DNA of 64,000 nt from Kiritimatiellia bacterium (GTDB taxonomy: Bacteria; Verrucomicrobiota; Kiritimatiellia; CAIVKH01): the NCBI GenBank assembly GCA_035327665.1, contig DAOLCW010000003.1:1216-65215 (forward strand), in the 5' to 3' direction. The translations under genes and the position numbers were made by a program. The notes under the pieces are model-generated. The model saw only the letters and a program-made list of their open reading frames with translations, searched no databases and had not been told where the DNA came from. Of this stretch, positions 660 to 60,365 are shown one piece after another. Numbering within the stretch: the first letter of the stretch is position 1; the number at the start of each line of letters is the position of its first letter.

Positions 660-927
660 GGTTTTCCTCTGGGGGGAAGTTTGATGGGGTTTCGCGGGGA
701 AACCAAGCCGAAAGGGTATCGGGGTTTTGCTTAGCTTAACATCATGGGAGTTCCCGGCGGGGTTTGCTTTCACGGCGTTGGAATTCGGTTAGATTGATGA
801 GGAGAAAGATAACGCGAATGAGCGTTCAAGCTGGATGCGCATGAATGCCCCGGTGGGGGCAGCAGGGCTTCGGCTTGGGTTGCGGGAGAAGCCCGCAGTC
901 GATACGACGAGTCGTGGGAGATAAGAC

Positions 928-2133: not shown

Positions 2134-2152
2134 TTTCAACCCTTCGAGGTGG

Positions 2153-3112: not shown

Positions 3113-3143
3113 GGGGGCGAAGGGGCGAGCCGGGAGCACGACG

Positions 3144-4427
3144 ATGTATATGACTGGTTTTCAGTGTTTGCGGTGCGGCCACGGGTCGGAGAGCCTTGGA
3201 GAGGACATGGCGTGCGGGGTCTGCGGGGGGAATCTGGAGGTGGTGTATGCCTACGACATGCTTCGGGATCTCGCGGAGGCGGGCCGGTTGTGGACATCGG
3301 GTCGACGGGATGTGTTCCGTTATTTGCCTTTGCTTCCGGTGAGGGATGTGTCGCTGGCGTCGCCGTTGCGGGTGGGATGTACGCCACTTTATGAGGCGAA
3401 CCGGCTGGGGGAACGGGCGGGGTTGCGGGGGGTGATGATCAAGGATGACGGGATGAACCCGACGTCGTCGTTCAAGGACCGGGCGGGAGCGATCGCGCTG
3501 GTAAGAGCGCGAGAGACGGGGGCGAGGGTGATTGCGGGGGCATCGACGGGGAATGCGGGGAGTTCGATTGCGGGGCTTTGCGCGAGTGTGGGGCAGGCGT
3601 GCGTGGTGTTTGTTCCGGAGTCGGCCCCGCCGGCGAAGTTGCTTCAGCTCCGGGCGTACGGGGCGGCGGTGATTGCGGTGCGGGGAACCTATGATGATGC
3701 GTACGACTTGTGTACGAAGACCTGCAAGGCGTATGGGTGGTTCAACCGGAACACGGGGGCGAATCCGTTTACGCGGGAAGGGAAGAAGACCTGTAGTTTT
3801 GAGATCTGGGAGCAGTTGGGAGGGGTGGCCCCGGACCGGGTGGTGGTGCCGGTGGGGGATGGAAACATCATCAGCGGAATCTGGAAAGGATTCCGGGATT
3901 TACTGCGGGTGGGATTGATTGACCGGATGCCGAAGATTGACGCGGCGCAGGCGGCAGGAAGCGCGGCGGTGACGCGAACGGTGGAGCGGTTGCGGAGTGA
4001 AGGGGGGGCTTTGACGACAATGGACTGGCGTTCGGTCGAGGTGGAGACGGTGTCGGCGAAGACGCTGGCGGATTCGATTTCCGTGGATGCGCCGCGGGAT
4101 GGCTTGGCGGCGGTAAGGGCGGTGCTGGAGACGGGAGGGGAGGCGGTAGCGGTCGCGGACGAGGCGATTCTGGACGCAGAACGGGAACTGGCCTCGGTGG
4201 CGGGGATTTTTACTGAGCCGGCGTCGGCGACAGCGTGGGCGGGGATCAAGGCGCTTGCGGCATCGGGGAGGTTGGATCCGGACGAACGGATGGTGTGCCT
4301 GTTGACGGGGAACGGTTTGAAGGACGCGGGGAAGATTGCGGGACGGTTGCCCGAGCTTCCGGTGATTGATCCGGAGGTAACGGCGGTGGAGCGGGTGCTT
4401 GAGGGGTCGGGGTTGTTGGAGGGGTAG
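3144..4427 (+). CDS. threonine-synthase-family PLP enzyme (fold type II) with N-terminal zinc ribbon
   Basis: 427 aa. CLRCG...CGVCGG ribbon, PLP-lysine motif NPTSSFKDRAG, glycine loop GASTGNAG. True substrate unknown. Confidence 0.75.
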   Translation: MYMTGFQCLRCGHGSESLGEDMACGVCGGNLEVVYAYDMLRDLAEAGRLWTSGRRDVFRYLPLLPVRDVSLASPLRVGCTPLYEANRLGERAGLRGVMIKDDGMNPTSSFKDRAGAIALVRARETGARVIAGASTGNAGSSIAGLCASVGQACVVFVPESAPPAKLLQLRAYGAAVIAVRGTYDDAYDLCTKTCKAYGWFNRNTGANPFTREGKKTCSFEIWEQLGGVAPDRVVVPVGDGNIISGIWKGFRDLLRVGLIDRMPKIDAAQAAGSAAVTRTVERLRSEGGALTTMDWRSVEVETVSAKTLADSISVDAPRDGLAAVRAVLETGGEAVAVADEAILDAERELASVAGIFTEPASATAWAGIKALAASGRLDPDERMVCLLTGNGLKDAGKIAGRLPELPVIDPEVTAVERVLEGSGLLEG

Positions 4428-4433
4428 GCTGGC

Positions 4434-4844
4434 TCAGGGCGAGTTGACCCAATGGCCTTCCCCGTCGGTATAGACTTCCTTTTTCCAGACGGGAAGTTGT
4501 TCCTTGATGGTGTCGATGAGGAAGCGGCAAAGGTCGAAGGCGGCGGTACGGTGCGGGGTGGCGACGCCGATCCAGACGGCGGTTTCACCGGGGACAAGGA
4601 TGCCTACGCGATGGGCGGCGGCAATGGTGGCGGGGCCATGGCGGCGGATGCCTTCGGCGGCAATGGCTTCGAACACCGGGGCGACGAGAGGTTCAGCGGC
4701 CTCGTAATGGAGATGACGGACGGTGCGGTCGTCGTGACGATCTCTCACCACACCTTCGAAGATGACGATTCCTCCGAGCTGAGTGGAGTCGAGGTGGCGG
4801 CGCAGGGCCAGCGTGTCGATGGGTTTTTCGGTGAGATAAAACAT
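4434..4844 (-). CDS. moaE: molybdopterin synthase catalytic subunit MoaE
   Basis: Start moved to the internal ATG (complement of 4842-4844), giving MFYLTEKPID.... Motifs: FEGVVRD, HRVGILVPGE, LPVWKKE. Confidence 0.85.
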   Translation of the reverse strand: MFYLTEKPIDTLALRRHLDSTQLGGIVIFEGVVRDRHDDRTVRHLHYEAAEPLVAPVFEAIAAEGIRRHGPATIAAAHRVGILVPGETAVWIGVATPHRTAAFDLCRFLIDTIKEQLPVWKKEVYTDGEGHWVNSP

Positions 4845-4947
4845 GAACGGTTTGGTTCCAGGGCGGGGATTGTAAGGGCAATTTTTGCGGATGCAAGGGA
4901 CTTGACGCAAGGGCGAGGGAAAGGAAGTCTTCCCATGAGGAGATGCA

Positions 4948-6096
4948 ATGACAGCTACACCGCCTTTCGATTCGTTGGTTAAAACCGGTCGCCGGTGGGG
5001 ACGTCGAGCCCGTCGGCAGTTGCGGCGGACGCTGGGTTTGTCGAGCCCGACCCGGGCGAAGCCGGTCGGTTTGTCGCCGGGTTCTTTGGTGTATGTGGGG
5101 GAACCGGTAACTGAACCGGCGCGGATGACGGCGATGGTCTATCACGACACCCGATGCGAGGAGAAGGTGGTGGAGCGGGTGGAGGACCTGGACGGTTTGT
5201 TGGCGGAGGGGGGGAAGTTATGGCTGAATGTGGACGGCATCCATGATGTGGGTTTGATGGAGGCGTTGGGGAAACGATTTTCGATTCATCCGCTGGCGGT
5301 GGAGGACATCGTTCATACAAACCAACGGGCGAAGTTGGAGGATTACGGGGACAAACTGTTTGTGGTGCTGCGGATGTTTGTGAGCCGGGAGGTCCGGGGG
5401 ATGGCGAATGAGCAGGTGAGCATGATTCTTGGGCAGGACGTGTTGATTACCTTTCAAGAGAAAGCGGGGGATGTTTTTGAACCGGTTCGGGATCGCTTGC
5501 GCAAGGGGGGGCCGAAGATGCGTCTGGGCGGGGTGGATTATCTTGCCTATGCCTTGATCGATGCGGTGGTCGACCATTACTTTCAGTTGTTGGAAGTGGT
5601 GGGAGAAGAGATCGAGACGATGGAAACCCGGCTGGTGAGCAAACCGCAGGCGGAGGATTTGGCGGCGATTCATCAGCACCGGCGGGATCTGGTGATCCTC
5701 CGCAAGTCGGTTTGGCCTTTGCGGGAAGTTCTGGGGGCACTTCAGCGTAACGAGGCAGGATTGATTCAGGGCTCGACGGGGGTCTATCTCCGGGATGTCT
5801 ACGACCATACGATTCAGGTGATCGATACCATCGAGTCCTACCGAGACGTGATTATGGGGATGTTGGATTTATACCTGTCGAGCATCAGCCTGAAGACGAA
5901 CGAGGTGATGAAGGTTCTGACGATCATTGCCACCATTTTTATTCCGCTGACCTTTTTTGCCGGGGTGTACGGGATGAACTTCGAGCGGTTTCCGGAATTG
6001 GCGTGGAGCTGGATGTATCCGGAAGGGTTCTGGATTTTTGTGGCGACTTGCGTAGCGGGCATGGTGGGGTTGTTCAAGTGGAAGCGGTGGTTGTAA
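4948..6096 (+). CDS. corA: CorA-family magnesium/cobalt transporter
   Basis: 382 aa. C-terminal two-helix membrane domain with the GVYGMNF (GMN) signature. The N-terminal start is uncertain (basic extension). Confidence 0.9.
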   Translation: MTATPPFDSLVKTGRRWGRRARRQLRRTLGLSSPTRAKPVGLSPGSLVYVGEPVTEPARMTAMVYHDTRCEEKVVERVEDLDGLLAEGGKLWLNVDGIHDVGLMEALGKRFSIHPLAVEDIVHTNQRAKLEDYGDKLFVVLRMFVSREVRGMANEQVSMILGQDVLITFQEKAGDVFEPVRDRLRKGGPKMRLGGVDYLAYALIDAVVDHYFQLLEVVGEEIETMETRLVSKPQAEDLAAIHQHRRDLVILRKSVWPLREVLGALQRNEAGLIQGSTGVYLRDVYDHTIQVIDTIESYRDVIMGMLDLYLSSISLKTNEVMKVLTIIATIFIPLTFFAGVYGMNFERFPELAWSWMYPEGFWIFVATCVAGMVGLFKWKRWL

Positions 6097-6109
6097 GCTG
6101 GCGAGGGCT

Positions 6110-6985
6110 TCAGCGGCCAGAGGGCCGGTAGTACCGGTAGGCGTCGGGGAGGAGCCGTTCGATGGCGCGGATGCGGTCGCGGTCGACGGGATGGGTGCGG
6201 AGGAACCAGGGGGTGGCTCCACCGCGGGCCCGGTTGTAGTCGGCGAAGCGCTGCCAGAAGTGGACGGCCTCGCCGGGGTCGTAGCCGGCCTTGGCCATGT
6301 AGATGAGGCCGATATGGTCGGCTTCGAGTTCCTGTTTCCGGCTGTGGGGGAGGGCGACACCAAGGGTGGTGCCGAGGCCATAGGCGGCCATGATGAGGGC
6401 GCGAACGGCGGGATCCTCCTCGCCGGTGGCGACGGCGACGGCGCCAGCTCCGACTTGGAGCATGATGGCCTGACTCATACGTTCCGCGCCGTGGCGGGCG
6501 ACCGCGTGGGCGACTTCGTGGCCGATCACGGTGGCGAGTCCGGCTTCATTCAAGGTGATGGGAAGGATGCCGGTATGGACGCCAATCTTTCCGCCGGGGA
6601 GGCAAAAGGCATTGGGTTCATCGTTGTTGAAAACGACGAACTCCCATTGGGCGCCGGGGAGGTCGGCGACGGCAGCGATTCGTTCACCGACTTGCCGGAC
6701 CATGGCGTTGATTTCGGGATCGTTGTTGATGGAGCCGGATTGTTTGATTTCCTGAAAGGCGGATTGGCCGAGGCTCATTTCCTGACTTTTGGAGAGGAGG
6801 ATCATTTGGCGCCGGCCGGTTTCGGGTACGGTTGCGCATCCGGAGCCGAAGAGGGCGGCGCAGGCGATGAGCAAGAGAACGAGGCGGGTTGCAGGATAAA
6901 AAATAGAATGTGAGATGGGCTTCAAGGAAACGTCCTCCGGGAGCGATCGAAGAACAACTATGTGCACTGGAGATAAAAGGGTCAA
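6110..6985 (-). CDS. M48-family zinc metalloprotease lipoprotein
   Basis: HEVAHAVARH (HExxH) motif, lipobox LFGSGC, downstream glutamate (ELEADHIG). Exact start uncertain. Confidence 0.8.
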   Translation of the reverse strand: MTLLSPVHIVVLRSLPEDVSLKPISHSIFYPATRLVLLLIACAALFGSGCATVPETGRRQMILLSKSQEMSLGQSAFQEIKQSGSINNDPEINAMVRQVGERIAAVADLPGAQWEFVVFNNDEPNAFCLPGGKIGVHTGILPITLNEAGLATVIGHEVAHAVARHGAERMSQAIMLQVGAGAVAVATGEEDPAVRALIMAAYGLGTTLGVALPHSRKQELEADHIGLIYMAKAGYDPGEAVHFWQRFADYNRARGGATPWFLRTHPVDRDRIRAIERLLPDAYRYYRPSGR

Positions 6986-7028
6986 GCCGTGGCGGGAGGA
7001 GTGGTAAATAAGTTTATCAAGTTCGGGG

Positions 7029-7129: not shown

Positions 7130-10100
7130 ATGTTTACGCTGTCGCGTTGTTTTCGCTTGGCTTTGATCGCTTTGATTCCATGGGGATTTGGACTGGAGGC
7201 GGGGGCTCAAACCAATCAAGCTCCGGTGATCACCTTCCCGGCGATCGCCATGACGCCGGAAGGAACGCCGTTTGTGTTTTCGGGGCTCAACTCGGTTTCG
7301 GTTGCCGATCCGGATGTCGGGGCGTCCAATATGACGATGCGGATGCGTGTGTTGCCCCCAGCGGCCGGCGTCTTATCGATCGCCACGCCGCTGCCTGCAG
7401 GCGTGACGTTCATCAATGCCACCGTCAACAACTCGAATGAGCTTTGGTTGCAGGGGGGGATCACCAACATCAATCTGGCGATCTCCTCGCTGGTGTACAG
7501 CAATGCGCTGTATACGAATGGAACCTTCTCGGTGGGATTTGCCGCCAACGATCTCGGGCACAATGGTACCGGTGGCCCTCAGGTGACGGTTGAGAGCACG
7601 AGCATGACGGTTACACCCGTCAACAATGCGCCGGTGATTGCCCTGCCGCCGGGGCTCACCAATGTGATTTGGGAAGACACTCTCCTCACCATGCCGATCA
7701 CGGTGACCGACCCGGACCTCTTCGACAACCCCGGGGCCTATGAATTTCAAGTCAGTTTGTCGGCGACCAACGGTCCGATCGTGATCGGTCCAACCAACGG
7801 GTTGACGTTCACCGCGGGTGATCCCCTGGTAACCACGGGCGGGGTGATCGTGGTGACGAACGCGACGTTCCGGGGTCCGTATTCTCTGATGACGAATACC
7901 CTGGCTCAGGTGGTTTACCTTCCCCTGCTCGATTTTAATGGTGTGGATACGATTACCATCCAGGTCAACGACCTTGGCAATTTCGGGACGGGCGGGCCGT
8001 TGTCGACCACGGTGGTGCATGTGGTGACGGTCCTCGCCTCGAACGATGCGCCGACCCTCGACCTTCCGGATTTCGTCAACGGGAATGAAGGCGAAGAGAT
8101 CTTTCTTGGATTGGGTGGCACGGTTGACGATGTGGATGTGGGGGAGGACCCGTTGGGCGAGTTGCTGCTTACCTTATCGGTAACCAATGGCACCCTGACA
8201 TTTTTATCCACGAATGGCTTGACGTTTACGGGAGGGGCAAACGGCACCACCGGAGTTACAGTGACCGCGAGTTTGGAAGATTTGAATGTGGCACTGGGCA
8301 GTTTGGTCTATCAGGGATTTCCGAACTTTTTCGGGTTTGACACCCTTCAGGTGTTTGTAAGCGACCAAGGCTTTACGGGGGCGGGCGGGGTATTCACGGA
8401 TACAGGCACGGTGGCGATCGAGGTGTTTCAGGTCAATGATGCGCCGGAGTTGGACAGTTCGGTGGACATGACGCTGCCGAACATCCTTGAGGATGATTTC
8501 ACCAATACGGGAGCGACGGTGGCGGCGATACTCGCCACAGGTGCGGGGGGCGATCCGATTTTCGATCCCGATCCGGGAGCGGTGGACGGCATTGCGGTGT
8601 TCGAACCGGATAACAACGGGGGTGCGTGGGAGTACTCGATCAATGGCGGGGTGACCTGGACGGGGTTCGGGGACATCTTTGAAACGGGGGCGGTGTTGTT
8701 GAATCCGGCAGCGCGGATCCGGTTCGTGCCCAGTCCTGATTACAACGGGACCAACACCTTTCTGTTCCGGGCGTGGGACCAGACCTCGGGGGCAAACGGG
8801 GATACCGGTGCGGATTCCTCGATCAACGGGGGATCGACGGCGTTCAGCACAAATGTCGCGCTGGCCCGGATTGTGGTGTTGCCGGTCAACGATGCACCGG
8901 TGTTCACCAACCTGACCGGGATCGCGCTCAACAATCAGGATGAGAATGACTTCAACCCGCCGGGAACGACGATCTCCAACATCCTTGAGAACGCGAATCA
9001 ACCGTTGATCGATATCGACGGAGACCCGGTTGGTTTTGCGGTGATTGGCCGAAACAATACGGACGGAGTCTGGGAGTATTCGACGGACGGGGGCGGGAGT
9101 TTTGCCCCGATCGGTGCGGTTGGTCTGGCGAGTTCACTACTCCTCGATGAGGATGCGGTGTTGCGGTTTATTCCGAATCCCGGGTGGTTTGGATTTGCGG
9201 ACATCGTGGTGCGCGGCTGGGATTTGACGGTCGGCACAAGCGGTCAGACCGGGGTCAATGCGGGACCGGGCGGGGGAACAAGTGCGTTCAGTTCGATGTC
9301 GGCGACGGTTACGGTGGAGGTGGTCGACATCAATGATGCACCGGTGCTCGATCCGACCGGCCCGTTCACGTTCACTCCGATTGGGGTCAATGATTTTGAC
9401 AACCCTGGCGATTCGATTTCCAATGTGCTGGCGGGCGCGGGAACTCCGATCACCGATGCGGATGTCAACGATTCACAGGGCATTGCGGTGATCGCGGTGG
9501 ATACCAGCTTTGGACTTTGGCAGTACTCGCTGGACGGGGGCGGACTGTGGAATGTTCTTGGACCGGCGAGCCTTGATGCGGCGGTCTTGCTGCCGGATCA
9601 CGCTTTGGTCCGGTTTGTGCCAAGTCCGAATTTCGGCGGATCGGCAACGCTCGAGTTTCATGCCTGGGACCGTTCAGCGGGCAGCGATGGCGAAGGTGGG
9701 GTGGATGTGTCGGTGAACGGGGGTTCGACGCCGTTCAGCACGAACAGCGCAATCGCCTCGGTGTCGATGATTTCTTCAAACAATGCGCCGGTCCTTGACA
9801 ATTCGGTGACGTTTCTTCTGACCACGATAGCCGAGAACAATGTGAGCAGCCCCGGTGATGAGGTTGTGTTTATCATCGCCAGTCCCGGTGGGGACCGGAT
9901 TACCGATGCCGATGTGGGCGCTCTTGAAGGCCTGGCTGTGGTCGAAGTCGATGATGCCAATGGAGTTTGGCAGTACTCGATCAACGGCGGGGCGACCTGG
10001 CTTCCGTTCGGGGCGGTTACCCCGGCTTCGGCGGTTTTGCTGGATACCTCGGACTTCATCCGGTTCGTGCCCGACCCCGGGTTCTTCGGCCAGGCTACCT

Positions 10101-33253: not shown

Positions 33254-33475
33254 CGTGCAACCGAACCCAGCACCCCGAACCCATAACGCTGAGGCTGGCC
33301 CTGAACCTATATTCCCATTACCGACAATTTTCCGGCATGGAGGATCGACAAAGCTCACGACAAAGCTCGCGACAAAGACATGAATACTGACTACGACCAA
33401 TGAAACATCACACGCCGACCCCCTAACCAATAACCCAAAACCTCCTACCTGCTGAACCCTTGCCCCCCTTTCTCC

Positions 33476-33504
33476 TTGACGACGAACGCGACTGTGTTTA
33501 TTTT
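33476..33504 (+). promoter_or_regulatory. candidate sigma70-like promoter giving a near-leaderless regulator mRNA
   Basis: TTGACG (33476-33481), 17-nt spacer, TATTTT (33499-33504). The ATG at 33515 is only 10 nt after the -10 element. Pattern match only. Confidence 0.3.
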
Positions 33505-33514
33505 GTTCTGAACG

Positions 33515-34006
33515 ATGAAAACAGGTGATCAGGCTGTTTCCGACGCCCTCTGGCAAATGATCGAAGCCGGGGGTAGAACCTCGCAAACGTTCGGGCTAAG
33601 TCGTTTGCTCGGACAGATCTACACATTGCTTTATTTGAAGTCAGACCCTCTCTCTCTCGACGAAATCGTCAACGAGCTGGAAGTGAGCAAGGCCAGTGTA
33701 AGCGTGGCCTGCCGCCAACTTCAATCGTTTGGTGCGGTCAAGCGGTCGACTCGAAAAGGGGACCGGCGGGATTTTTACGAAGCGGTTCAAGATGTGCGGG
33801 GTCTGATTCAAAATGGGCTGTTGCCGGCCATTGAGAAGAAACTCGACTCGGCCCGGATTCAGATCGAACAGTGTTTGGCCATGCTGGAAGCTGCGGATGG
33901 TAACCCCCGGGCGGAACAGCTTCGAACTCGACTTCATGAAGCGGAAAAACGCCGGGCCAAGATGGATAAGTTGCTGCGCAATCCATTGGTCCGCAGTATG
34001 TTGTGA
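33515..34006 (+). CDS. GbsR/MarR-family winged-helix transcriptional regulator
   Basis: 163 aa. SRLLGQIYTLLYLKSDPLSLDEIVNELEVSKASVSVACRQLQSFGAVKR is a typical wHTH of the GbsR/MarR type. Confidence 0.75.
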   Translation: MKTGDQAVSDALWQMIEAGGRTSQTFGLSRLLGQIYTLLYLKSDPLSLDEIVNELEVSKASVSVACRQLQSFGAVKRSTRKGDRRDFYEAVQDVRGLIQNGLLPAIEKKLDSARIQIEQCLAMLEAADGNPRAEQLRTRLHEAEKRRAKMDKLLRNPLVRSML

Positions 34007-34234: not shown

Positions 34235-34783
34235 GTGACGTTTCTTGAAATGTTGCAGGTTGCTTCGGATGCCTTCGAAACGGAAGGCGTTCAGTGCTTG
34301 CTGATCGGGGGATTGGCGGTCAATTACCATGGGTATAGCCGCAATACGCAGGATATTGATTTCATGGTGGCAGCGGTTGAACTTGATCGCGCCGATCGCG
34401 CGTTGAGAGATGCTGGATTTTCCAATGTGGAGCGAAGGCCCAACGTCGTTTTTTTCAGAAGGCCCGATGATGACCTGCGGCTGGATGTTCTGCATGTAGA
34501 GGAGGAGACATTCAAACAACTTTGGTCATCTTCTTTAACGATACATCCATCAGGCCATGCCCTTCGAATTCCGTGCCTTGAACATTTACTGGCCATGAAA
34601 CTATTTGCCTTGAAGACCAGTTGGGACCGGCGAGTTGCCAAGGATCTTCCCGACATCGCCAATCTCATCGTGATCAATGGGTTGGATATGAACGCCGTCT
34701 TGCGTCCATTATGTCATCGTTTTGCCGATGAGCAGATCTACGGTCGAATTGCTGATGAAGTGAAAAAGCTTGGCGGGTGCTGA
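34235..34783 (+). CDS. minimal nucleotidyltransferase-fold protein (MNT / DUF6036-like), cassette copy 1
   Basis: 182 aa. NTase signature LIGGLAVNYHGYSRNTQDIDF (GG...DxD). Alternative start at ATG 34250. Confidence 0.6.
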   Translation: MTFLEMLQVASDAFETEGVQCLLIGGLAVNYHGYSRNTQDIDFMVAAVELDRADRALRDAGFSNVERRPNVVFFRRPDDDLRLDVLHVEEETFKQLWSSSLTIHPSGHALRIPCLEHLLAMKLFALKTSWDRRVAKDLPDIANLIVINGLDMNAVLRPLCHRFADEQIYGRIADEVKKLGGC

Positions 34784-47257: not shown

Positions 47258-49054
47258 ATGGCAACGCTTGCTATGATTGCGGTGATTACCCGAGAACATG
47301 AGGGACACCAGGTTCGGGCCCGTCTTCACGAGATGGCTGACGGCTTCAACGAGTTGATTCTGGTAGATGACGGAGTTGGGGCCTCTCTTGATCCTTTGAT
47401 CAAGGATCTAACGGAATGTTATGCATGTTTACGGGTCGTGCGCTACAGGAAACCGGCATTTTACCTTGGCTCCTGGAAGCCTCTCGTCGATGAACTCACA
47501 TCCGAGTTGGTCACCTTTTTGTCGCCATGCCTGATCCTTCGTCCGGATTATTACCGCCGAACGCTTGCCGCGTTCGAGCAACATCCAGCCTGCCGTTTGG
47601 CGTTTGGTGGAATCACGAATGGGGTGTATTCGGATGAAGTTTCCCAATTCGCTGAATCGGATGTTCACCGAATCAACCGCGAAAATTTCATCGACATGAT
47701 ACTTGCAACCACGGGCGCGCAAGGTTCCACGCCCGCGACTGCTGTTTTTCGTCGGGCAGACTTCATTGAATCGGGAGGTTTCCGATGGGAACTCGCAGGA
47801 GGGCATGGTTGGCCTCCCTTTTTAATCATCGGTTTGGGCGACGGAGCCATCTATCTCGGGGATGAATGCGGGATACGCCTTGGGGAGGATTGGTTCCCGG
47901 CGGTGTATGGCGAGACGCGTCCCCTTCGCGTATTGGATGATCTGGCCCGGATGCATCATGTGGTCAATGGTTACCATGCTACGGATGCCGTCGGCAAATG
48001 GCATCAGCGGATGAAAGACGCCTATATACATCATGTCTGCGAGCAGATTCACGCTCCCGCGATTCGCGTCAATAAAACCATGGATGCACTGTATGGGCCT
48101 GGTGGGCCCCGTCGTGGTCTTCTGGTGGCGATGGCCCAGCGCATGGTGGGATTATGTCGCAGGATCTTGGCAGGACGGATGTCGGTGACCCTGTGCGGGT
48201 ACAAGCCGGATGTGGAATGTTATGGGTGGATCAAGCCATCCTTTTCGTTCGGGGTTAATTGGCGCAACTTTATCCGGTCGAAGTACAATGAAGACCGGGT
48301 CGTGATCGCTCAACAAGATCTTCTGGATTTTCTGGAGGTCAAGAATTTTTCGGGAATGCGAGTGATGGATATCGGCTGTGGCAGTGGGATTCATTCGTTG
48401 GCAGCTTTACGCGCGGGCGCTGACGAATTGGTTTCGTTTGATTATGACTCGGCTTCCGTTGAGGCGACCCGGCGGCTTTTTGAGGATGAGGGTTCCCCTT
48501 CGCGATGGACCGTTTCGCAGGGCTCCGTACTCGATCCGGAGTTTATGGGGCGTCTTGCTCCCGCAGATCTCGTGTACTCCTGGGGTGTTCTTCACCATAC
48601 CGGACAGATGTGGGAGGCGGTGAAGGCTGCTGCACAACGAATGAAGCCCGATGGACTATTGTTTATTGCGTTGTACACCAAATGGCCGGGATCGGATGAT
48701 GCGGTACGTTTGAAGATCCGCTACAATCGGGCCGGATGGTTCCGGAAGCGCTGGATGGAGATGGTTCTGATGCGGGCCGGGGTGCCGGGAATATCTTATT
48801 TGTTTAAGGACCCCGGATTTTTCCTGGATCGACTGAAAGATAAGCTGACCTTGATTCGAACCTACCGCAAATTCCGCGGAATGAGTTTCTATCATGATAT
48901 TGTGGATTGGTTGGGGGGATATCCCTACGAAGATGCGACGGTGGAAGAAGTGGTATGGTTTTGTAAAACATTCTGTGCATTGACTCCGGTCAAGGTGCGA
49001 GATCGCGGTGGAAATCTGTGCTCCTACTATCTTTTCCGGAAGGGCAAGACGTGA
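47258..49054 (+). CDS. fusion protein: N-terminal GT2-like glycosyltransferase domain and C-terminal class I SAM methyltransferase domain
   Basis: Start ATG 47258, preceded by GGAGGAGG. N-terminal IAVITREHEG...LILVDDG, C-terminal MRVMDIGCGSGIHSLAALRAGADELVSFDYD. Confidence 0.7.
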   Translation: MATLAMIAVITREHEGHQVRARLHEMADGFNELILVDDGVGASLDPLIKDLTECYACLRVVRYRKPAFYLGSWKPLVDELTSELVTFLSPCLILRPDYYRRTLAAFEQHPACRLAFGGITNGVYSDEVSQFAESDVHRINRENFIDMILATTGAQGSTPATAVFRRADFIESGGFRWELAGGHGWPPFLIIGLGDGAIYLGDECGIRLGEDWFPAVYGETRPLRVLDDLARMHHVVNGYHATDAVGKWHQRMKDAYIHHVCEQIHAPAIRVNKTMDALYGPGGPRRGLLVAMAQRMVGLCRRILAGRMSVTLCGYKPDVECYGWIKPSFSFGVNWRNFIRSKYNEDRVVIAQQDLLDFLEVKNFSGMRVMDIGCGSGIHSLAALRAGADELVSFDYDSASVEATRRLFEDEGSPSRWTVSQGSVLDPEFMGRLAPADLVYSWGVLHHTGQMWEAVKAAAQRMKPDGLLFIALYTKWPGSDDAVRLKIRYNRAGWFRKRWMEMVLMRAGVPGISYLFKDPGFFLDRLKDKLTLIRTYRKFRGMSFYHDIVDWLGGYPYEDATVEEVVWFCKTFCALTPVKVRDRGGNLCSYYLFRKGKT

Positions 49055-49164
49055 CGCAACGCGGTGTTTCACCGCGTTGCGAACGTGGCAGCCCCGTTTG
49101 GATGCGGCTCCGCCGCATCCATCACGGCCGCGAAGCGGCGGATTATTCACGTTCGTGAATAATC
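49055..49164 (+). other. three consecutive perfect palindromic hairpins directly after the stop codon
   Basis: 12-bp stem at 49055-49081 (CGCAACGCGGTG TTT CACCGCGTTGCG). 10-bp stem at 49099-49121 (TGGATGCGGC TCC GCCGCATCCA). 24-nt palindrome at 49141-49164 (GATTATTCACGTTCGTGAATAATC). None has a U-tract. Confidence 0.85.
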
Positions 49165-49222
49165 AGGGCTAACCTTCTGATCTTGTCGTGTCCTGACCCC
49201 ATAACCCTCCTTTTTCCTGATT

Positions 49223-51013: not shown

Positions 51014-51513
51014 AGACGGAGGAGCGCAGACGAAAGAAAGACTGAAGACGGAGGATGGTTGTCGATAAAGTTTACGACAAAGCTTCCGACAAAGATGGGA
51101 AATGGGGAACAAGGTAGCAAGGTTGCAAGGGTTCAGGGGAAGTGATTCAGTATCCCAAACTTTGTGTTGAACTTAATCCTGTTGCGGTATGGGGGACAAA
51201 GTATGACCGAATACGAGTAGACGACGTGTGACCACGTTGCCACCTTGCACCCTTGTTACCCTGCACCCTTTTCACCTATGCTTCGCTCCGAAGACGGAGC
51301 TTCCACCGTTGACCTCCGGGCTATGGCGGACAAGACGCAGGGCAAGCCAAGAACCAAGCACCAAACACTCGTATCCCCAGCACCAGAGACTCCCTTCGGT
51401 CGTCGCGGTGCGGGGCAGGCCCGAATCCCGTATCCCGCAACCCGCATCCCGTATCTCGTAACCCGAATCCCGTATCCCGCATCTCGTATCCCGTATCTCG
51501 CATCCCGCCCCCC
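51014..51513 (+). repeat. dispersed composite intergenic element, copy 1 (full length)
   Basis: Order along the element: CGACAAAG words, purine octamer arm (51095-51140), unique core (51141-51235), pyrimidine arm (51236-51272). Then GCTCCG-AAGA-CGGAGC hairpin, 24-mer 51321-51344, leader hairpin 51380-51411, and 12 heptamers (51427-51510) up to the ATG. Confidence 0.85.
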
Positions 51514-52929
51514 ATGCTGTTTAATTCCATCGATTTTGTTTTGTTTTTTGCCGTCGTGTACGGCCTGTACCTGGTCTTGCGGCATCGGGCACAAAACTGG
51601 CTGCTGCTGGGGGCCAGCTATTTCTTCTACGGATGCTGGGACTGGCGGTTTCTTTCCCTTATCCTGATTTCCACCCTGGTGGACTACGTTTGCGGGTTAA
51701 AGATCCATGAAGCGACGCGCCCGGGAACACGGCGAGGATTTCTGGTCCTCAGCATGGTCAGCAACCTGGGGTTGCTGTTCTTTTTTAAATATTTCGGTTT
51801 TTTCGCGGAAAGCGCCCAGGTTTTGTTCCAGCGCCTGGGTATGGAGTTGGACTGGGTAACCCTGCACTTTGTGCTGCCCGTCGGCATCTCGTTTTATACG
51901 TTTCAGACCATGAGCTACACGATCGATATCTATCGCCGTGAGCTCAAGCCGACCCGCGACCTGCTCGACTTTGCCGTTTTTGTCGCGTTTTTCCCTCAAT
52001 TGGTGGCGGGGCCGATTGAGCGGGCCCGGCACTTGCTTCCTCAGGTTCAACTGCGGAGGGTTCTCACCTATCCCATGATTCGCGAAGGTTGCTGGCTGAT
52101 CCTGTTGGGATACTTCAAAAAAGTGGTGATCGCGGACAACATGGCCCCCCTGGTGGCCACGGTGTTCGATCATCCCGACCAGGCCTACGGGTTGTCCATT
52201 CTTGCTGCAACGGTGGCGTTTGCCTTTCAGATTTACGGGGATTTTTCCGGGTACACCGATATTGCCCGGGGAATCAGCAAGTTGATGGGTTTCGACATCA
52301 TGCTCAATTTCCGCATGCCGTACTTTGCCTTGAATCCCCAGGACTTTTGGAAGCGGTGGCATATCAGCCTGTCCACCTGGCTGCGCGATTATTTGTACAT
52401 CCCGTTGGGGGGCAACCGGGGCGGGACCGTCTTCACCTATCGTAATTTAACCTTAACCATGTTGTTGGGGGGACTGTGGCATGGCGCGGCCTGGCATTTT
52501 GTCGCGTGGGGGGCCTACCATGGGCTGTTGTTGGTCGGCCATCGTCTCCTCCTGCCCATCTTGTCCCTGATCCAGCCCACATCGCTGATCGGGCAGCGTG
52601 TCTGGCATTGGGTTCGTCTTACCGGTTTCTTCGGGTTGACCTGTTTCGGGTGGATGTTGTTCCGGGTTGAGTCGTTGGCCGATGTCCCGGTTTTGCTTTC
52701 CAACATCGTTCAGCCCTTTGCCTGGAATGGAAAGGTTGCCATGTTGACCATGGCGTGTCTTTTGCCACCGCTGCTGATTCTGGATTATTGGCAGGAAAAG
52801 ACCGGGGATTTGCTGGTGGTGAAGCGCTGGCCCGCGCCGGTGCGCCTAGCCACCTATGCTACCTTGTTCGCGTTCATTGTGATGACAGGCTGGGTGGAGC
52901 GTATTGAGTTCATCTATTTCCAGTTCTGA
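51514..52929 (+). CDS. MBOAT-family membrane O-acyltransferase (AlgI/DltB-like)
   Basis: 471 aa. WHISLSTWLRDYLYIPLGGNR with the catalytic His, plus GGLWHGA. Confidence 0.9.
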   Translation: MLFNSIDFVLFFAVVYGLYLVLRHRAQNWLLLGASYFFYGCWDWRFLSLILISTLVDYVCGLKIHEATRPGTRRGFLVLSMVSNLGLLFFFKYFGFFAESAQVLFQRLGMELDWVTLHFVLPVGISFYTFQTMSYTIDIYRRELKPTRDLLDFAVFVAFFPQLVAGPIERARHLLPQVQLRRVLTYPMIREGCWLILLGYFKKVVIADNMAPLVATVFDHPDQAYGLSILAATVAFAFQIYGDFSGYTDIARGISKLMGFDIMLNFRMPYFALNPQDFWKRWHISLSTWLRDYLYIPLGGNRGGTVFTYRNLTLTMLLGGLWHGAAWHFVAWGAYHGLLLVGHRLLLPILSLIQPTSLIGQRVWHWVRLTGFFGLTCFGWMLFRVESLADVPVLLSNIVQPFAWNGKVAMLTMACLLPPLLILDYWQEKTGDLLVVKRWPAPVRLATYATLFAFIVMTGWVERIEFIYFQF

Positions 52930-52984
52930 TGTGAAGGGATAAAGACGGAATCTCGCGCGGTAACCGCGAAACAAACGTCCTATT

Positions 52985-53500
52985 TTCAACACGGAGTGCA
53001 CGGAGGACACGGAGAAAGACAGAATGAAATCCTCTCCGTGGTCTCTGTGTTCTTCAGCGAAGCGGATGGTAGAATAAAGTTCAGATACGAAGACTTCCGA
53101 AGATCCGCATTGAAACAATGTTTTTCACCACGGAGTGCACGAAGGACGCGGAGAAAAAACAGAATGAAATCCTCTCCGTGGTCTCTGTGTTCTCCAGCGA
53201 AGCGGGTGGTAGAATCAAATTCCGATACGAAGACTTCCGAAGATCCGTATTGAAAAGATATTCTCCACCACGGAGTGCAAGGGGGACACGGAGAAAAAAC
53301 AGAATAAAATCCTCTCCGTGGGCTCTGTGTTCTCCAGCGAAGCGGGTGGTAGAATAAAGTTCCGATACGAAGACTTCCGAAGATCCGTATTGAAAAGATA
53401 TTATTTACCACGGAGTGCAAGGGGGACACGGAGAAAAAGCAGAATAAAATCCTCTTCGTGGTCTCTGTGCCCTCCAGCGAAGCGGGTGGTAGAATTAAGA
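52985..53500 (+). repeat. tandem array of about 3.7 units of a 139-140 bp repeat, each unit containing a long hairpin
   Basis: ACGGAGTGCA anchors at 52991, 53130, 53270 and 53410. In unit 1, CACGGAGA (53008-53015) pairs with TCTCCGTG (53033-53040), extendable with G-U pairs. Confidence 0.9.
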
Positions 53501-53541
53501 TGTCTTCCAAAGGTACTGAAACCTGGCGTTAAACCTCTCTC

Positions 53542-54618
53542 ATGATCACCCTCGATTTGTATAAAGCCTACACCGGCCTGCCCCTGCGAACCCATGTATG
53601 GCATGGCCTTCTCGTGTTTACCGGTTTGTGCATCCTGGTTGGGGGTTCGTATGTGCTCCGGCGCTCCGGTGGTTCTGAATCCATTGTTGGACCTCCTTAC
53701 ATGTCTTTGGTGGACGACCAACTCGAAGTCATCTATGCCGGAACCTCCCATATCGGGTATGGGATTGATCCGAGAATCTACAGCCTGCGGGGAATGAACG
53801 TCTCCGCCGGTGCACTGAATTATGAATTAATGGAAAAGGTGATTGCCAGGTATCTCAACCGGGCGCCCAACCTCCGGCTTTTGGTTCTGGAGGCGGGCAT
53901 TGTCCCGCTTCGGGTCGATACCATGGCACGATTGGACGGCGATTACCAAAGTTTGTACCGTCTCGGTCTTGATTTGTCTGATCTCCCCCTGCCTTTTTAC
54001 CGGAAAGCGATGCAAGGCCTCAAGGAGTCATGGATCTTGTACCCGATTTACTTCATGGACCGTTGGTCACCCTCGATATGGGTCTGGGGTCGAAGACGAC
54101 TGGGCAGTGAAGGGGAAGGTCGCGTGGACACCCGGGGACACACGACTCTGGACCGGGTAATTTCGTCTCGAAACGATGGACGGGTGGTGGTTGCGCACCA
54201 TCAGGCTGACCATCTTGCTATGGATCATTCACCGGTTAATCTTCCCGCGCTGATCCGGATGCTGGACATGGCTGAACAGCGCCGACTACCGGTGCTGTTT
54301 TTGCGTATGCCTCACCATGCCAGCTATGTCGAACATCGGCCTGCCGAATGGGAGGCTCATGTGCAGGCTATGCTGACCGAGGTGTTGACAACCGTTAGGC
54401 CAGGAAGCGTCACCTATTTGGATTGGGAGCAGGGAATGATCTATATGGATGCCCATTTTGCCGATGGGGATCATCTAAACCGGGAGGGGGTTATAGCCCT
54501 TCGGGATGCACTTGATCCCGTTCTTCTCAGCATGGTCTCTTCGGCTCATCCAGAGGATTCGCCCTACCCGATTCACGGCGCACCGGTTGATCGTGAAAAA
54601 GCGATGGCTTTGCCGTGA
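53542..54618 (+). CDS. membrane-anchored hypothetical protein, possible SGNH/DUF1574-like partner of the MBOAT enzyme
   Basis: 358 aa. N-terminal TM, YAGTSHIGYG and FADGDHLNREG blocks reminiscent of SGNH blocks I and V. Assignment is weak. Confidence 0.5.
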   Translation: MITLDLYKAYTGLPLRTHVWHGLLVFTGLCILVGGSYVLRRSGGSESIVGPPYMSLVDDQLEVIYAGTSHIGYGIDPRIYSLRGMNVSAGALNYELMEKVIARYLNRAPNLRLLVLEAGIVPLRVDTMARLDGDYQSLYRLGLDLSDLPLPFYRKAMQGLKESWILYPIYFMDRWSPSIWVWGRRRLGSEGEGRVDTRGHTTLDRVISSRNDGRVVVAHHQADHLAMDHSPVNLPALIRMLDMAEQRRLPVLFLRMPHHASYVEHRPAEWEAHVQAMLTEVLTTVRPGSVTYLDWEQGMIYMDAHFADGDHLNREGVIALRDALDPVLLSMVSSAHPEDSPYPIHGAPVDREKAMALP

Positions 54619-57807: not shown

Positions 57808-57859
57808 TGGACAGATTAGTTCGGGCGAACCCTCTGGGTGAGCCGCTAGGCAATCGTCG

Positions 57860-58230
57860 ATAGGCGATAGGCTATAGACGGATCAGGGATGTCGACAAGG
57901 CTTGCGACAAAGCTACCGACAAAGATGGGAATGGGGGGACAAGGTAGCAAGGTCGCAGGGGTACAGGGGGAGTGACTGCGTTTCCCAAACGTTGTGTTGA
58001 ATGTAGTCCTGAACAGTGTAGGCGACTACGTGTGACCAGCGTGTTCCCTTGCCACCTTGCTCCCTTGTTACCCTTCCCCCTTTTCACCCATGCTTCGCTC
58101 CGCGGACGGAGCTTCCGCCGTCGTCCGGCGGATGCCGGACTATGGCGGACAAGACGCAGGGCAGGCAAAGCACGAAGCACTCTTATCCCGTATCCCGCAT
58201 CTCGGATCTCGTATCCCGTCGCCGCACAAA
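57860..58230 (+). repeat. dispersed composite intergenic element, copy 2
   Basis: Colinear with 51061-51440. Shared anchors include CCGACAAAGATGGGA, CCCAAAC(T/G)TTGTGTTGAA, ATGCTTCGCTCCG. The 24-mer CTATGGCGGACAAGACGCAGGGCA is identical at 58140-58163 and 51321-51344. Confidence 0.85.
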
Positions 58231-59136: not shown

Positions 59137-59149
59137 GGTTGGTAGGTGT

Positions 59150-59470
59150 TGGGTGAAAGACAGAAGACGAAAGACAATAGACGGATCAGGGATGTCGACA
59201 AAGCTTGCGACAAAGCTCCCGACAAAGATGGGAAATGGGGGACAAGACGCAGGGCAAGCCCTTCGACAAGCTTCCTCCTTCGTCCGGCAGTTGCCGGACT
59301 ACGGCGGACTGATCGCAGGGTAAACCAAGCACGAAGCACCCACCTTCGCCGAGGCTACGGCGGGCAGGCCAAGCACGCGGCGAAGTCGCATCCCGAATCT
59401 CGCACCTGTCCTGCGAAGCCTCGGCGAAGCAGGATCCCGCATCCCGTAACCCGCCACACCCGATCTACTT
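59150..59470 (+). repeat. dispersed composite intergenic element, copy 3 (internally deleted), plus a 13-bp inverted repeat
   Basis: TAGACGGATCAGGGATGTCGACAA is shared with copy 2. GGGGGACAAG is joined directly to ACGCAGGGCAAGCC (59237-59260). CTTCGCCGAGGCT (59344-59356) pairs with AGCCTCGGCGAAG (59417-59429). Confidence 0.8.
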
Positions 59471-59502
59471 GACAACTTGTCACGATACCGTAGCGTGCAC
59501 CT

Positions 59503-59736
59503 ATGAAAACGCTATCCGTAGGGAAGTTTAAATCTGAATTTTCCAAGATCCTGGAAAGTGTGGCCAAGGGTAATCCGGTGGCCATTTCGTACGGTCGAAA
59601 GCATGCGCCGGTGGCCATGATGATCCCGTATCCGCAAAAGGCCGGAGAACGCAAGCTGGGTGTCATGGAGGGGCGCGCAGGTTATGCATGGAAAGAGGAT
59701 GGGAAAATCAGCGATGAAGAACTTCTCCGATCATGA
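59503..59736 (+). CDS. type II antitoxin (Phd/YefM-like)
   Basis: 77 aa. MKTLSVGKFKSEFSKILESVAKGNPVAISYGRK.... Its stop overlaps the toxin ATG as ATGA. Confidence 0.7.
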   Translation: MKTLSVGKFKSEFSKILESVAKGNPVAISYGRKHAPVAMMIPYPQKAGERKLGVMEGRAGYAWKEDGKISDEELLRS

Positions 59737-60137
59737 ATCTCCTGCTCGATAGCCATTCCTTGATCTGGGCCGTGTGTGATGCGAAATAATTTCCGCGGGA
59801 CGTGTTCGCCGAACTGAAAAAGCCATCGAATGCGGTGTTCATCAGCGCGGTATGCTTGTGGGAAATTTCCCTGAAGTTTGCCCTTGGCAAGCTGAGCCTC
59901 GATCAAATTACCCCCGATGCCTTGCGCCTCTCCGCGGTTGACATGGGTTTTGCGTTGATGCCTTTGCTGCCGGAAGAAGCCTCCGGTTTCGACAACTTAC
60001 CTCGATCCGGTCACAAGGATTCGTTTGACCGGATGCTGGTGTGGCAGGCCATTCACAACAAGCATCAGTTCGTGTCCTGCGATGCCGCGCTGGATGTTTA
60101 CAAGGTACAAGGCCTGAAGCGCTTTTGGCCGGAGTAA
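59733..60137 (+). pseudogene. vapC: PIN-domain VapC toxin gene interrupted by one in-frame TAA (59787-59789)
   Basis: ATG 59733 gives MNLLLDSHSLIWAVCDAK, then TAA. The same frame continues FPRDVFAELKK...SAVCLWEISLKFALGKL...HKDSFDRMLVWQA...SCD, so all PIN acidic positions are present. Confidence 0.75.
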
Positions 60138-60283
60138 GTGCGATGGGCGAAGGACGGATGACAATAGACGATAGACCATGGCCGATGGACGAGAGGCCGA
60201 ATAATGGGTCAATCGTTCTGATGAATCTCGTTTGCCCAACAACCAGTCGTTGACGATAGCAAGAAAAGCTGCTCTACCGGCCA

Positions 60284-60365
60284 TTCCCGTAACCCGTATC
60301 CCCCATATCCCGAATCCAGAATCCCGCATCCCGTATCTCGCATCTCGTAACCCGTATCCCGCATC
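60284..60365 (+). repeat. pyrimidine-rich CCCGTAT-type heptamer array running to the start codon
   Basis: ...AACCCGT ATCCCCC .. ATCCCGA ATCCAGA ATCCCGC ATCCCGT ATCTCGC ATCTCGT AACCCGT ATCCCGC ATC, then the ATG at 60366. Confidence 0.9.

Follow-up and report, generated by a model that had tools for sequence, protein, structure and literature searches.

A tandem hairpin array in a Kiritimatiellia polysaccharide locus and the dispersed between-gene repeat family to which it belongs

The DNA considered here (henceforth the window) is a stretch of 64,000 nucleotides of contig DAOLCW010000003.1 from the Kiritimatiellia bacterium assembly GCA_035327665.1, part of a 154-kb contig from an activated-sludge metagenome. 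Between 24 and 64 kb all its genes lie on the + strand and make up a polysaccharide locus, with a Wza-like exporter, a Wzc-like kinase, a priming transferase, a Wzy_C-domain protein, a Wzt-like ABC ATPase, several GT4 and GT2 glycosyltransferases, AsnB, methyltransferases, and AlgX- and GDSL-type proteins. Inside this locus, the 612-bp spacer between an MBOAT gene and the gene of its probable partner, two probable cell-envelope acylation genes, holds a tandem array of hairpin-forming units. The features of the spacer and its two borders are as follows.

51514–52929, + strand: MBOAT / DltB-like O-acyltransferase, 471 aa, upstream of the array (Pfam PF03062, E 8e-27; TIGR04091 LTA_dltB, 148.7 bits, below the cut-off of 375)
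52956–52968, + strand: small GC hairpin CGCGG-TAA-CCGCG, between the MBOAT stop codon and the array (sequence, spacer fold)
52983–53499, + strand: tandem array, 3.7 units of 140 bp (Tandem Repeats Finder, TRF, and unit alignment)
52983–53122, + strand: unit 1, hairpin and linker (unit alignment, fold)
53123–53262, + strand: unit 2, hairpin and linker, nearest to the array consensus (unit alignment, fold)
53263–53402, + strand: unit 3, hairpin and linker (unit alignment, fold)
53403–53499, + strand: unit 4, hairpin only (unit alignment, fold)
53500–53541, + strand: diverged counterpart of the linker (GTCTTCCAAAGG against GACTTCCGAAGA), up to the partner start codon (alignment columns 100–142)
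53542–54618, + strand: membrane-anchored SGNH-fold protein, 358 aa, DltD-like, downstream of the array (predicted structure, Foldseek)

TRF reports the array with a period of 140, 3.7 copies, 91% matches and a score of 824. The anchor word ACGGAGTGCA has exact matches at 52991, 53130, 53270 and 53410 and nowhere else in the window (chance expectation 0.12), which bears out the anchors and the ~140-bp period given by an earlier, sequence-only reading of this DNA (the first-pass annotation). In a MAFFT alignment the four units show a mean column identity of 89%; unit 4 differs past about column 98, with its hairpin kept. The entire unit, linker included, is repeated at 89–94% identity and there are no unique spacers, which rules out a CRISPR array, as had been proposed. 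Unit 4 is followed by a copy of the linker that has diverged (GTCTTCCAAAGG... against GACTTCCGAAGA...), so that what was duplicated was the hairpin together with its own downstream flank; 53500–53541 is probably the ancestral form of that flank. The word AAACCTCTC ahead of the partner start codon is common to the window and one relative (L029).

Read 5' to 3', a unit opens with TTTCACCAC, the conserved 5' end of the hairpin, and continues with a purine-rich arm of three CACGGAG-type 9-mers, an A-rich loop of 17–18 nt, the complementary pyrimidine-rich arm, a GCGAAGC mini-hairpin and GGTGGTAGAA, which closes the outer stem with the 5' end. The conserved 3' core of the hairpin is CAGCGAAGCGGGTGGTAGAA, and in units 1–3 a linker of about 45 nt with a small hairpin of its own follows on its 3' side. 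The parts lie at these positions.

52990–53015, + strand: purine-rich 5' arm of unit 1, three CACGGAG-type 9-mers (TRF, 9-mer ACACGGAGG, 2.9 copies)
53129–53154, + strand: purine-rich 5' arm of unit 2 (sequence, fold, consensus fold)
53269–53294, + strand: purine-rich 5' arm of unit 3 (sequence, fold, consensus fold)
53409–53434, + strand: purine-rich 5' arm of unit 4 (sequence, fold, consensus fold)
53030–53055, + strand: pyrimidine-rich 3' arm of unit 1 (motif/similarity search)
53170–53195, + strand: pyrimidine-rich 3' arm of unit 2, with the core a module of ~42 nt dispersed in the sample (sample unitigs)
53310–53335, + strand: pyrimidine-rich 3' arm of unit 3 (motif/similarity search)
53450–53475, + strand: pyrimidine-rich 3' arm of unit 4, where TT>CC improves pairing with GGGGG of its 5' arm (alignment, fold)
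53056–53075, + strand: core of unit 1, AGCGAAGCGGATGGTAGAAT, GCGAAGC mini-hairpin and 3' strand of the outer stem (motif search, consensus fold)
53196–53215, + strand: core of unit 2, AGCGAAGCGGGTGGTAGAAT (motif search, genome scan, consensus fold)
53336–53355, + strand: core of unit 3 (motif search, consensus fold)
53476–53495, + strand: core of unit 4 (motif search, consensus fold)
53084–53115, + strand: linker 1, small hairpin GATACG..CGCATTG (fold, motif search)
53224–53255, + strand: linker 2, small hairpin (fold, motif search)
53364–53395, + strand: linker 3, small hairpin (fold, motif search)

A consensus fold of the four units and two homologues has 30 pairs. Its outer stem joins TTTCACCAC to GTGGTAGAA; the long stem, in three parts, pairs the purine-rich with the pyrimidine-rich arm around the A-rich loop, and the GCGAAGC mini-hairpin (two pairs) sits in a 3' bulge. 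In this fold 94.4% of the cells are paired, against 39–61% when the partners are slid by 1–3 columns. The perfect 8-bp stem described earlier for unit 1, CACGGAGA (53008–53015) with TCTCCGTG (53033–53040) around a 17-nt loop, was confirmed; an inverted-repeat search lengthens it to 17-nt arms with 82% Watson-Crick complementarity, and RNAfold pairs 20 positions once G-U is allowed.

The open reading frames (ORFs) that overlap the array were held to be non-coding, and this agrees with what we find. The period of 140 is not a multiple of 3, so these ORFs shift frame from unit to unit, and the four overlapping array ORFs have no Pfam match at E<=1. In unit 1 the loop offers a Shine-Dalgarno (SD)-like arrangement, GGAGA-N9-ATG, at the start of a 17-codon ORF; in units 3 and 4 this ATG has become ATA.

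The ~95-nt hairpin of the array is a member of a dispersed between-gene repeat family found in bacteria of the Planctomycetes-Verrucomicrobia-Chlamydiae (PVC) group and in contigs of a viral collection. Its dispersal can be seen already in the source sample, for which we used the Logan unitigs of two DNA runs (X1 and X2) of one activated-sludge sample. Other contigs of this sample match 53169–53210 with different flanks, and the summed word depth over 53175–53210 reaches ~1100–1230 compared with ~45–50 for single copy (80% likeness). The 3' half thus measured amounts to about 20 extra copy-equivalents, on contigs at the depth of the window organism. Only the 3' arm and core are dispersed there, the depth of the 5' arm and loop being that of the array itself. 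The first-pass annotation had named, as one candidate, a miniature version of elements seen elsewhere in the locus; this came close to the mark. No further copy of the hairpin was found within the window (blastn-short; motif search with 3 mismatches).

Beyond the sample, a scan of one genome per species with the 20-mer CAGCGAAGCGGRTGGTAGAA gave 11 loci, eight of them in metagenome-assembled genomes (MAGs) of the PVC group (Kiritimatiellae, Pontiellaceae, Opitutales, Verrucomicrobiota, and 'PVC group'); matches outside it include a 280-kb Desulfosudis contig and a 128-kb Acidobacteriota contig. Three matches lie at contig ends, where repeats are expected to end contigs. At all eight loci with upstream sequence the 20-mer stands at the end of a pyrimidine-rich stretch of CTCCGTG-type words; in most cases this stretch is the 3' arm of a hairpin made up of purine arm, loop and pyrimidine arm. 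The neighbouring genes are unrelated (pheT, radical SAM, dihydrodipicolinate synthase, beta-helix protein, methyltransferase), and an all-against-all blast finds that similarity between loci ends within ~95 nt, which rules out a larger conserved element around the hairpin. The element of a Verrucomicrobiota MAG (L013) is 80.6% identical to a window unit over 93 nt. An Opitutales locus (L009) has a second unit at the contig end together with a similar linker, so the tandem arrangement recurs in the family. A metagenome scan with the 20-mer returned two real members and four coding chance matches of a GGATGG variant, and a scan of the viral collection with the core returned 0 matches. With its hairpin found beside unrelated genes elsewhere and in ~20 more copies in the sample, the array is not the locus-specific structured-RNA array that had been envisaged.

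Rfam (release 15) gave no hit in the array at the gathering threshold, in a whole-window scan and a permissive scan of the region whose best scores were noise (16–18 bits), and nothing relevant at that threshold in eight related loci. The core and arm sequences were not found in the papers searched, which yielded one unrelated match. The repeat family and its architecture appear to be new, while its kind is known, as discussed below.

Three forms of the hairpin can be distinguished, and they are interconvertible. Form A (L011, L014, L015, L026) is a full palindrome with 22-nt inverted ends, TTTTCACCACCCGCTTCGCTGGAG and CTCCAGCGAAGCGGGTGGTAGAAA, and a GCGAAGC / GCTTCGC segment at both ends. Form B (the window, L006, L013, L009) has a 5' end without CCGCTTCGCT and carries the GCGAAGC segment at its 3' end only. 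In form C the segment is at neither end and the element reads AACCACGGATGAACAC...GTGTTCATCCGTGGTT (also written AACCACGGATGAAC...GTTCATCCGTGGTT). Comparison of relatives shows that the 3' end of the window element, GTGTTCTCC-AGCGAAGCGG-GTGGTA, equals that of form C, GTGTTCATCC-GTGGTT, plus a 10-nt insert, AGCGAAGCGG.

The same locus is present in relatives with the gene order methyltransferase - AsnB - MBOAT - partner - GT4 - GT2. Their MBOAT-partner spacers (partner homologues 57–65% identical) measure 0–174 bp, against 612 bp in the window. Across the orthologous spacers compared here, the partner proteins have 62–69% identity to that of the window. One form-C hairpin occupies each of the spacers L029, L030 and L031, a decayed hairpin those of L023-25, and one form-A element in the opposite orientation that of L026; L027 and L028 have no hairpin, and L026 and L027 are mutual closest relatives whose partner proteins are 75% identical. 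Given these differences in form, orientation and presence, a hairpin in the MBOAT-partner spacer is common, neither universal nor fixed in orientation. Among the orthologous spacers only that of the window has a tandem array.

In the viral collection the arms also occur alone. The 18-mer of the form-C arm, CCGTGTTCATCCGTGGTT, has 35 sites on 27 contigs. Strand readings of palindromic hairpins account for 12 of these sites; the remaining 23 are single arms. We counted how the single arms are placed relative to ORFs, taking the purine strand as sense and using simple ORF calls, not curated genes.

Same-strand ORF end within -12 to +28 nt of the arm: sense 14/23, opposite 3/23, random 5.2%
Same-strand ORF start within -22 to +64 nt of the arm: sense 12/23, opposite 4/23, random 10.3%
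Either ORF end or start at the arm: sense 18/23, opposite 6/23, random 14.5%
Both ORF end and start at the arm: sense 8/23, opposite 1/23, random 1%

Often the TAA of TAACCAC is itself the upstream stop codon, and the final CACGGATG contributes, or shortly precedes, the next ATG. A pattern of three CACGGAG repeats was found on 37 viral contigs; about 25 of these occurrences are non-coding and have the 5' end ATTTnACCAC, as in the window units, and several arms of this type are followed by GGAGG(G)-N5-10-ATG. Complete hairpins occur as well. The phage fragment L058 has genes for a head protease/capsid-like protein, a neck protein and a tail terminator. Its hairpins stand on either side of the 596-aa protease/capsid-like gene and ahead of the gene that follows the tail terminator, and they end 20–30 nt before the next ATG. 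These (L058 470–543, 2494–2567 and 4458–4530) and two in the related fragment L035 (1958–2031 and 3918–3988) are near-perfect form-C hairpins of 26–31 bp at matching between-gene positions. On two other contigs (L038 ~100–260, L043 ~7700–7860) there is a nested hairpin with outer (GGATACG)n/(CGTATCC)n arms, like the heptamers of the window, and inner arms of the decamer type CCGTGTTCATCCGTGGTT, so the short-period arm families co-occur.

Several classes of known repeats resemble this family in part. Three come nearest in the way they work, and the family lacks defining features of each. The first comprises the repetitive extragenic palindromic (REP) sequences and the bacterial interspersed mosaic elements (BIMEs) built from them. 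A survey of GTAG-tagged REP/BIMEs and REPINs that covered Opitutus and Rhodopirellula describes elements much shorter than the present hairpin, namely 20–40-bp palindromes with a 6–13-bp stem and, in more than 90%, GTAG or a close variant 5' of the stem (Di Nocera et al. 2013, PMC3733652). Like REP/BIMEs, the family consists of short extragenic repeats in tens of copies, often between co-directional genes, and occurs as singlets, as inverted doublets forming a longer hairpin, and as clusters; such elements are thought to affect mRNA stability when transcribed, and two of the present three forms have GTAG at one end. The dispersed extragenic copies, tens per genome, that mark a REP are seen in the ~20 copy-equivalents of the sample and in the MAG matches beside unrelated genes. 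The differences are that the singlet here is a run of 9–10-nt direct repeats and not a palindrome, that the hairpin measures ~75–95 nt instead of 20–40 nt, that the cluster is a direct tandem array and not one of alternating orientation, and that no REP-associated tyrosine transposase (RAYT) was seen among the 34 window ORFs scanned (all outside 2153–24191). As to the tag, GGTGGTAGAA lies 3' of the stem in the forms that bear GCGAAGC, L026 ends in GGTGGTGAAA and the form without the segment ends in CCGTGGTT, GTAG being absent from both. We reject membership of the GTAG-REPs on the size of the unit and on the position and inconsistency of the tag.

Enterobacterial repetitive intergenic consensus (ERIC/IRU) sequences and Correia elements (NEMIS) are miniature inverted-repeat transposable elements (MITEs), imperfect palindromes of 100–155 bp in transcribed intergenic regions, and their RNA hairpins are possible substrates of RNase III/E that alter mRNA stability. 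The present family shares with them the size class, the location within operons, the long RNA hairpins and the terminal inverted repeats, which run TTT(T)CACCACCCGCTTCGCTrGAG ... CTCCAGCGAAGCGGGTGGT(A)GAAA in L011, L014, L015 and L026, the 5' copy of the window being without CCGCTTCGCT. It differs in having no sequence similarity to them, arms composed of short tandem repeats, a presence in phage contigs and direct tandem amplification. No target-site duplication was recognised in the flanks, which were inspected by eye, and no paired ends enclosing a transposase were seen in ~240 kb of loci.

Mycobacterial interspersed repetitive units (MIRUs) are likewise direct tandem units of 40–140 bp in an operon spacer, in the orientation of the genes (all flanking genes here are +), and members of the family abut a stop codon and the next start codon as they do. 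The array differs in its period of 140, which three does not divide, in lacking a conserved coupling ORF that overlaps the neighbouring stop and start codons, and in the hairpin nature of its units; copy-number polymorphism is a candidate property of the array. The L035 and L058 hairpins also recall the RNase III sites in late and early operons of T7-type phages in lying between structural genes, at 26–31 bp and 20–30 nt before the next start codon. Those of T7 are not a repeated sequence family with conserved ends, whereas the present family has such ends and occurs in bacterial chromosomes too. Two further candidates were discarded. The integron attC site (R''/R' boxes RYYYAAC ... GTTRRRY with extrahelical bases, one site behind each cassette ORF) shares only AAC...GTT, with mostly pyrimidines after GTT and near-perfect stems, and 23 of the 35 viral sites are single arms. 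An intrinsic terminator, a GC-rich stem with a U-tract behind it, is ruled out by the absence of any + strand terminator-like site in 52800–53700, the hairpin being followed by AGAAT or A-rich sequence.

At the RNA level the array folds well. Single units of 140 nt reach -40 to -43 kcal/mol (z -2.3 to -3.0), and the whole spacer reaches -209.4 kcal/mol (z -6.5) on the + strand and -199.1 (z -6.4) on the minus strand. The hairpin of a unit scores -32 to -36 kcal/mol on the + strand and -27 to -31 on the minus strand, every unit folding 4.4–6.1 kcal/mol better on the + strand, and the L013 and L006 elements do so by 10–15 kcal/mol. The claim that the G-U pairs work only on the + strand was thus overstated: the minus strand folds well too and there are 3 G-U pairs on either strand. 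One pair shows an A-U / G-U / G-C series across unit 1, unit 2 and L013, and in unit 4 the change TT>CC turns G-U pairs into G-C. These base changes and the better + strand folds of the units, L013 and L006 speak for a constraint on the RNA, as does the sense bias of the single arms.

The array is a non-coding tandem amplification, ~4 × 140 bp, of a resident between-gene repeat and ~45 bp of its downstream flank, and we lean, with moderate confidence, towards its hairpins acting on the operon mRNA. The amplification would most simply have arisen by replication slippage or unequal recombination between repeats. The array would then be co-transcribed with the operon, each unit RNA would fold into a hairpin of -32 to -36 kcal/mol, and the hairpins would serve as a barrier or processing site that shifts the relative stability and translation of the MBOAT and SGNH parts of the mRNA, with the number of units setting the strength of the barrier. 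Because the points at the RNA level are mixed, this mechanism is drawn by analogy with REP, ERIC and the between-gene hairpins of phages. Most likely the array either modulates the operon mRNA or is simply tolerated.

A number of observations weigh against an action on mRNA. The covariation of the two half-sites, a check suggested with the first-pass annotation, is weak: compensatory changes occur in 2 of 30 pairs, 42–69 of 500 shuffles reach the observed values, and the covariation term of RNAalifold is unfavourable (+0.31). The common ancestry of the four units reduces their shared strand preference to a single observation. Elsewhere, of 14 family hairpins oriented by their genes, only 9 fold better in sense; for form A the minus strand does as well as the + strand or better, and 7 of 12 spacers of the window also fold better on the minus strand, with no general preference for the + strand. 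By eye, hairpin and linker have diverged about equally between units, which indicates no stronger constraint on the stem. The locus was matched in the two DNA runs and in no RNA run, the exact copy number is uncertain, and the element is not indispensable at the MBOAT-partner position, as its flipped copy in L026 and the empty spacers of L027 and L028 make clear. Of the original proposal of four tandem structured RNA modules in an operon transcript, what stands is an array that is tandem, non-coding, hairpin-forming and on the strand of the flanking genes; its character as an RNA array specific to this locus is not supported.

The strongest competitor, which we take seriously and consider less probable, is a selfish or neutral repeat acting purely at the DNA level. 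The hairpin would be a mobile palindrome of the REP or MITE type, spread by a transposase that recognises either the conserved ends or the hairpin in single-stranded DNA, with the array a neutral variable-number tandem repeat (VNTR) produced by slippage and any RNA structure a by-product on which selection does not act. Such a repeat would fit the occurrence beside unrelated genes and across phyla (PVC, Desulfosudis and Acidobacteriota contigs), the ~22-nt terminal inverted repeats of the form with the GCGAAGC segment at both ends, the presence/absence and flipped copy among close relatives (L026 and L027) and the contigs that break at the element, as well as the equal divergence of stem and linker, the weak covariation and the lack of a consistent strand preference in the family. 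GCGAAGC, moreover, forms an unusually stable DNA mini-hairpin. What tells against it is that no transposase or RAYT gene was found among the scanned window ORFs or among 10 flanking ORFs scanned at family loci, that the related phage fragments L035 and L058 keep hairpins at conserved between-gene positions, and that the single arms have a strong sense-strand bias and lie exactly between stop and start codons. Random insertion would not yield this bias and placement without selection at the level of transcription or translation.

A bolder extension of the mRNA explanation, which we regard as unlikely, is that hairpin and single arm together represent a new class of RNA element located between genes, which PVC-group bacteria use and their phages have copied. 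In that case a host factor, for instance a ribonuclease, an RNA-binding protein or the ribosome itself, would recognise the conserved ends (UUUCACCAC / AACCAC ... GUGGU) and the SD-like purine repeats and would set translation re-initiation and segmental mRNA stability in operons. In tandem arrays, the number of units would tune the amounts of neighbouring gene products relative to each other.

We find it improbable that the units are DNA-binding or promoter modules, which would place four sites of regulation or initiation before the SGNH gene. In one variant the 9–10-bp direct repeats (CACGGAGNA; CACGGATGAA in relatives) would bind a regulator one helical turn apart; in another, TGGTAGAAT would serve either as an extended -10 element or as a pause signal of the ops kind (GGTGGTAGAAT against GGCGGTAGnnT), which acts on the non-template strand at the head of a long operon together with a NusG paralogue. 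The short-period direct repeats within the arms, the single arms just upstream of start codons and the presence of TGGTAGAAT in all four units speak for these ideas, and signals for NusG paralogues are known in polysaccharide operons of other phyla. In the four units GGTGGTAGAAT agrees at 8 of 9 specified positions with the ops consensus. Yet a consensus scan showed no enrichment of promoter or terminator sites and gave only two weak sigma-70-like ones (GGGACA-16-TAAAAT), neither with TAGAAT, and the final position of TAGAAT is A or C in other family members, not a conserved T. Unrelated genes flank these members, no NusG-like ORF was found among the scanned window ORFs, and the single arms usually start at the stop codon of a co-directional gene, inside operons and not at their heads.

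The small RNA (sRNA) array or protein sponge proposed in the first-pass annotation is very improbable; in a Csr/Rsm-like system of this kind, repeated GGA words would titrate an RNA-binding protein. Three ACGGAG words per unit, twelve in the array, and ACACGGAUGA in relatives, similar to the CsrA SELEX consensus, invite the idea, yet the GGA words are paired inside stems instead of being exposed in loops, no Rfam family matches, the units are not bounded by promoter- or terminator-like sites, and the same words also occur as single between-gene linkers.

Equally remote is an assembly artefact, in which the array or its copy number would be a mis-assembled dispersed repeat: the copy number comes from a short-read assembly, the Logan unitigs of the source sample end within the array, the unit 2 linker junction (53214–53264) has no unitig in run X1, a unit-junction variant in run X2 (53183–53298; 53216 C>A, 53219 A>G) is not present in the window, and the depth (summed words) of the array-specific 5' arm amounts to 3.6 (X1) or 5.5 (X2) single-copy equivalents, but unitigs link unit 1 to unit 2 across the linker, unit-specific variants lie on separate unitigs at about single-copy depth each, the array-specific 5' arm and linker are several-fold deep though not dispersed, and both flanks are single copy and collinear with relatives. 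The array may be longer or polymorphic in the sample.

On its own the array reveals no new mechanism, its REP/BIME-, ERIC- and MIRU-like kind being well known. If the favoured explanation in terms of operon mRNA is true, the 140-bp array is the visible tip of a family that inhabits within-operon spacers of Verrucomicrobia- and Kiritimatiellae-like bacteria and the structural operons of phages. The part worth following is the pattern of this family, with single arms in sense that bridge stop and start codons, a testable hint of a role at the translation or mRNA level in a superphylum that has been little studied, and its sharing between host and phage. In practical terms, regions of the family break assemblies and spawn spurious ORFs, and the array is a candidate VNTR marker for typing.

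The gene downstream of the array had been called a probable partner of the MBOAT gene. Its 358-aa product has no Pfam or NCBIfam match; it bears invariant GTSH and DGDH motifs and an N-terminal helix followed by an SGNH-like fold (AlphaFold, pLDDT 76.9), and its best PDB matches are DltD structures (3bma, 6pfx and 6o93; Foldseek E 2.5e-4 to 9e-4, TM 0.37–0.40). On these grounds the label is reasonable and the gene a plausible MBOAT partner, membrane-anchored and DltD-like. As in operons of the dltABCD type, DltB-like and DltD-like genes are both at the locus; there dltC lies between dltB and dltD, whereas here the spacer ORFs have no Pfam match and the relatives' spacers are only 0–174 bp. A dltC-like gene hidden in the spacer is ruled out by the lack of such a match, by the frame shifts between units and by the loop ATG not being conserved. 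None of 15 partner homologues, 57–65% identical, has a Pfam domain on record, and together they could define a new family of MBOAT partners for polysaccharide acylation. In one related lineage (L023 and L025, 2362–3498) a DDE_Tnp_1 insertion sequence lies within the MBOAT gene and splits it.

Other repeats are found in the window. The methyltransferase-AsnB spacer (49046–49180, + strand) contains a row of four hairpins that are perfect palindromes, among them GCCGC-GAA-GCGGC, with a dG of -85.6 kcal/mol (z -7.1) and a borderline Rfam match to AaHKsRNA22 (41.4 against 39.8 bits); its appearance is that of a REP-like cluster and not of this Aggregatibacter sRNA. Dispersed arm-loop-arm elements of ~400 bp lie at 51014–51513 and 57808–58230, and also near 33254–33514 and 59137–60365, with CGACAAAGCTnn 12-mers, CAAGG/CCTTG arms and arrays of the heptamer (CCCGTAT)n. 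The word TTCACCnnnGCTTCGC, similar to the form A 5' end of the hairpin family, is present in two of these elements (51271 and 58083), and several such spacers fold better on the minus strand. Within the polysaccharide locus a MarR-like regulator (33515–34006) and an AbiEii-type nucleotidyltransferase (34235–34783) form a pair resembling a type IV toxin-antitoxin system, bordered by repeat-rich spacers. Finally, the first 7 kb of the window (1–7000) have a very strong + strand GC skew of 0.27–0.39, which is about 0 beyond 17 kb.

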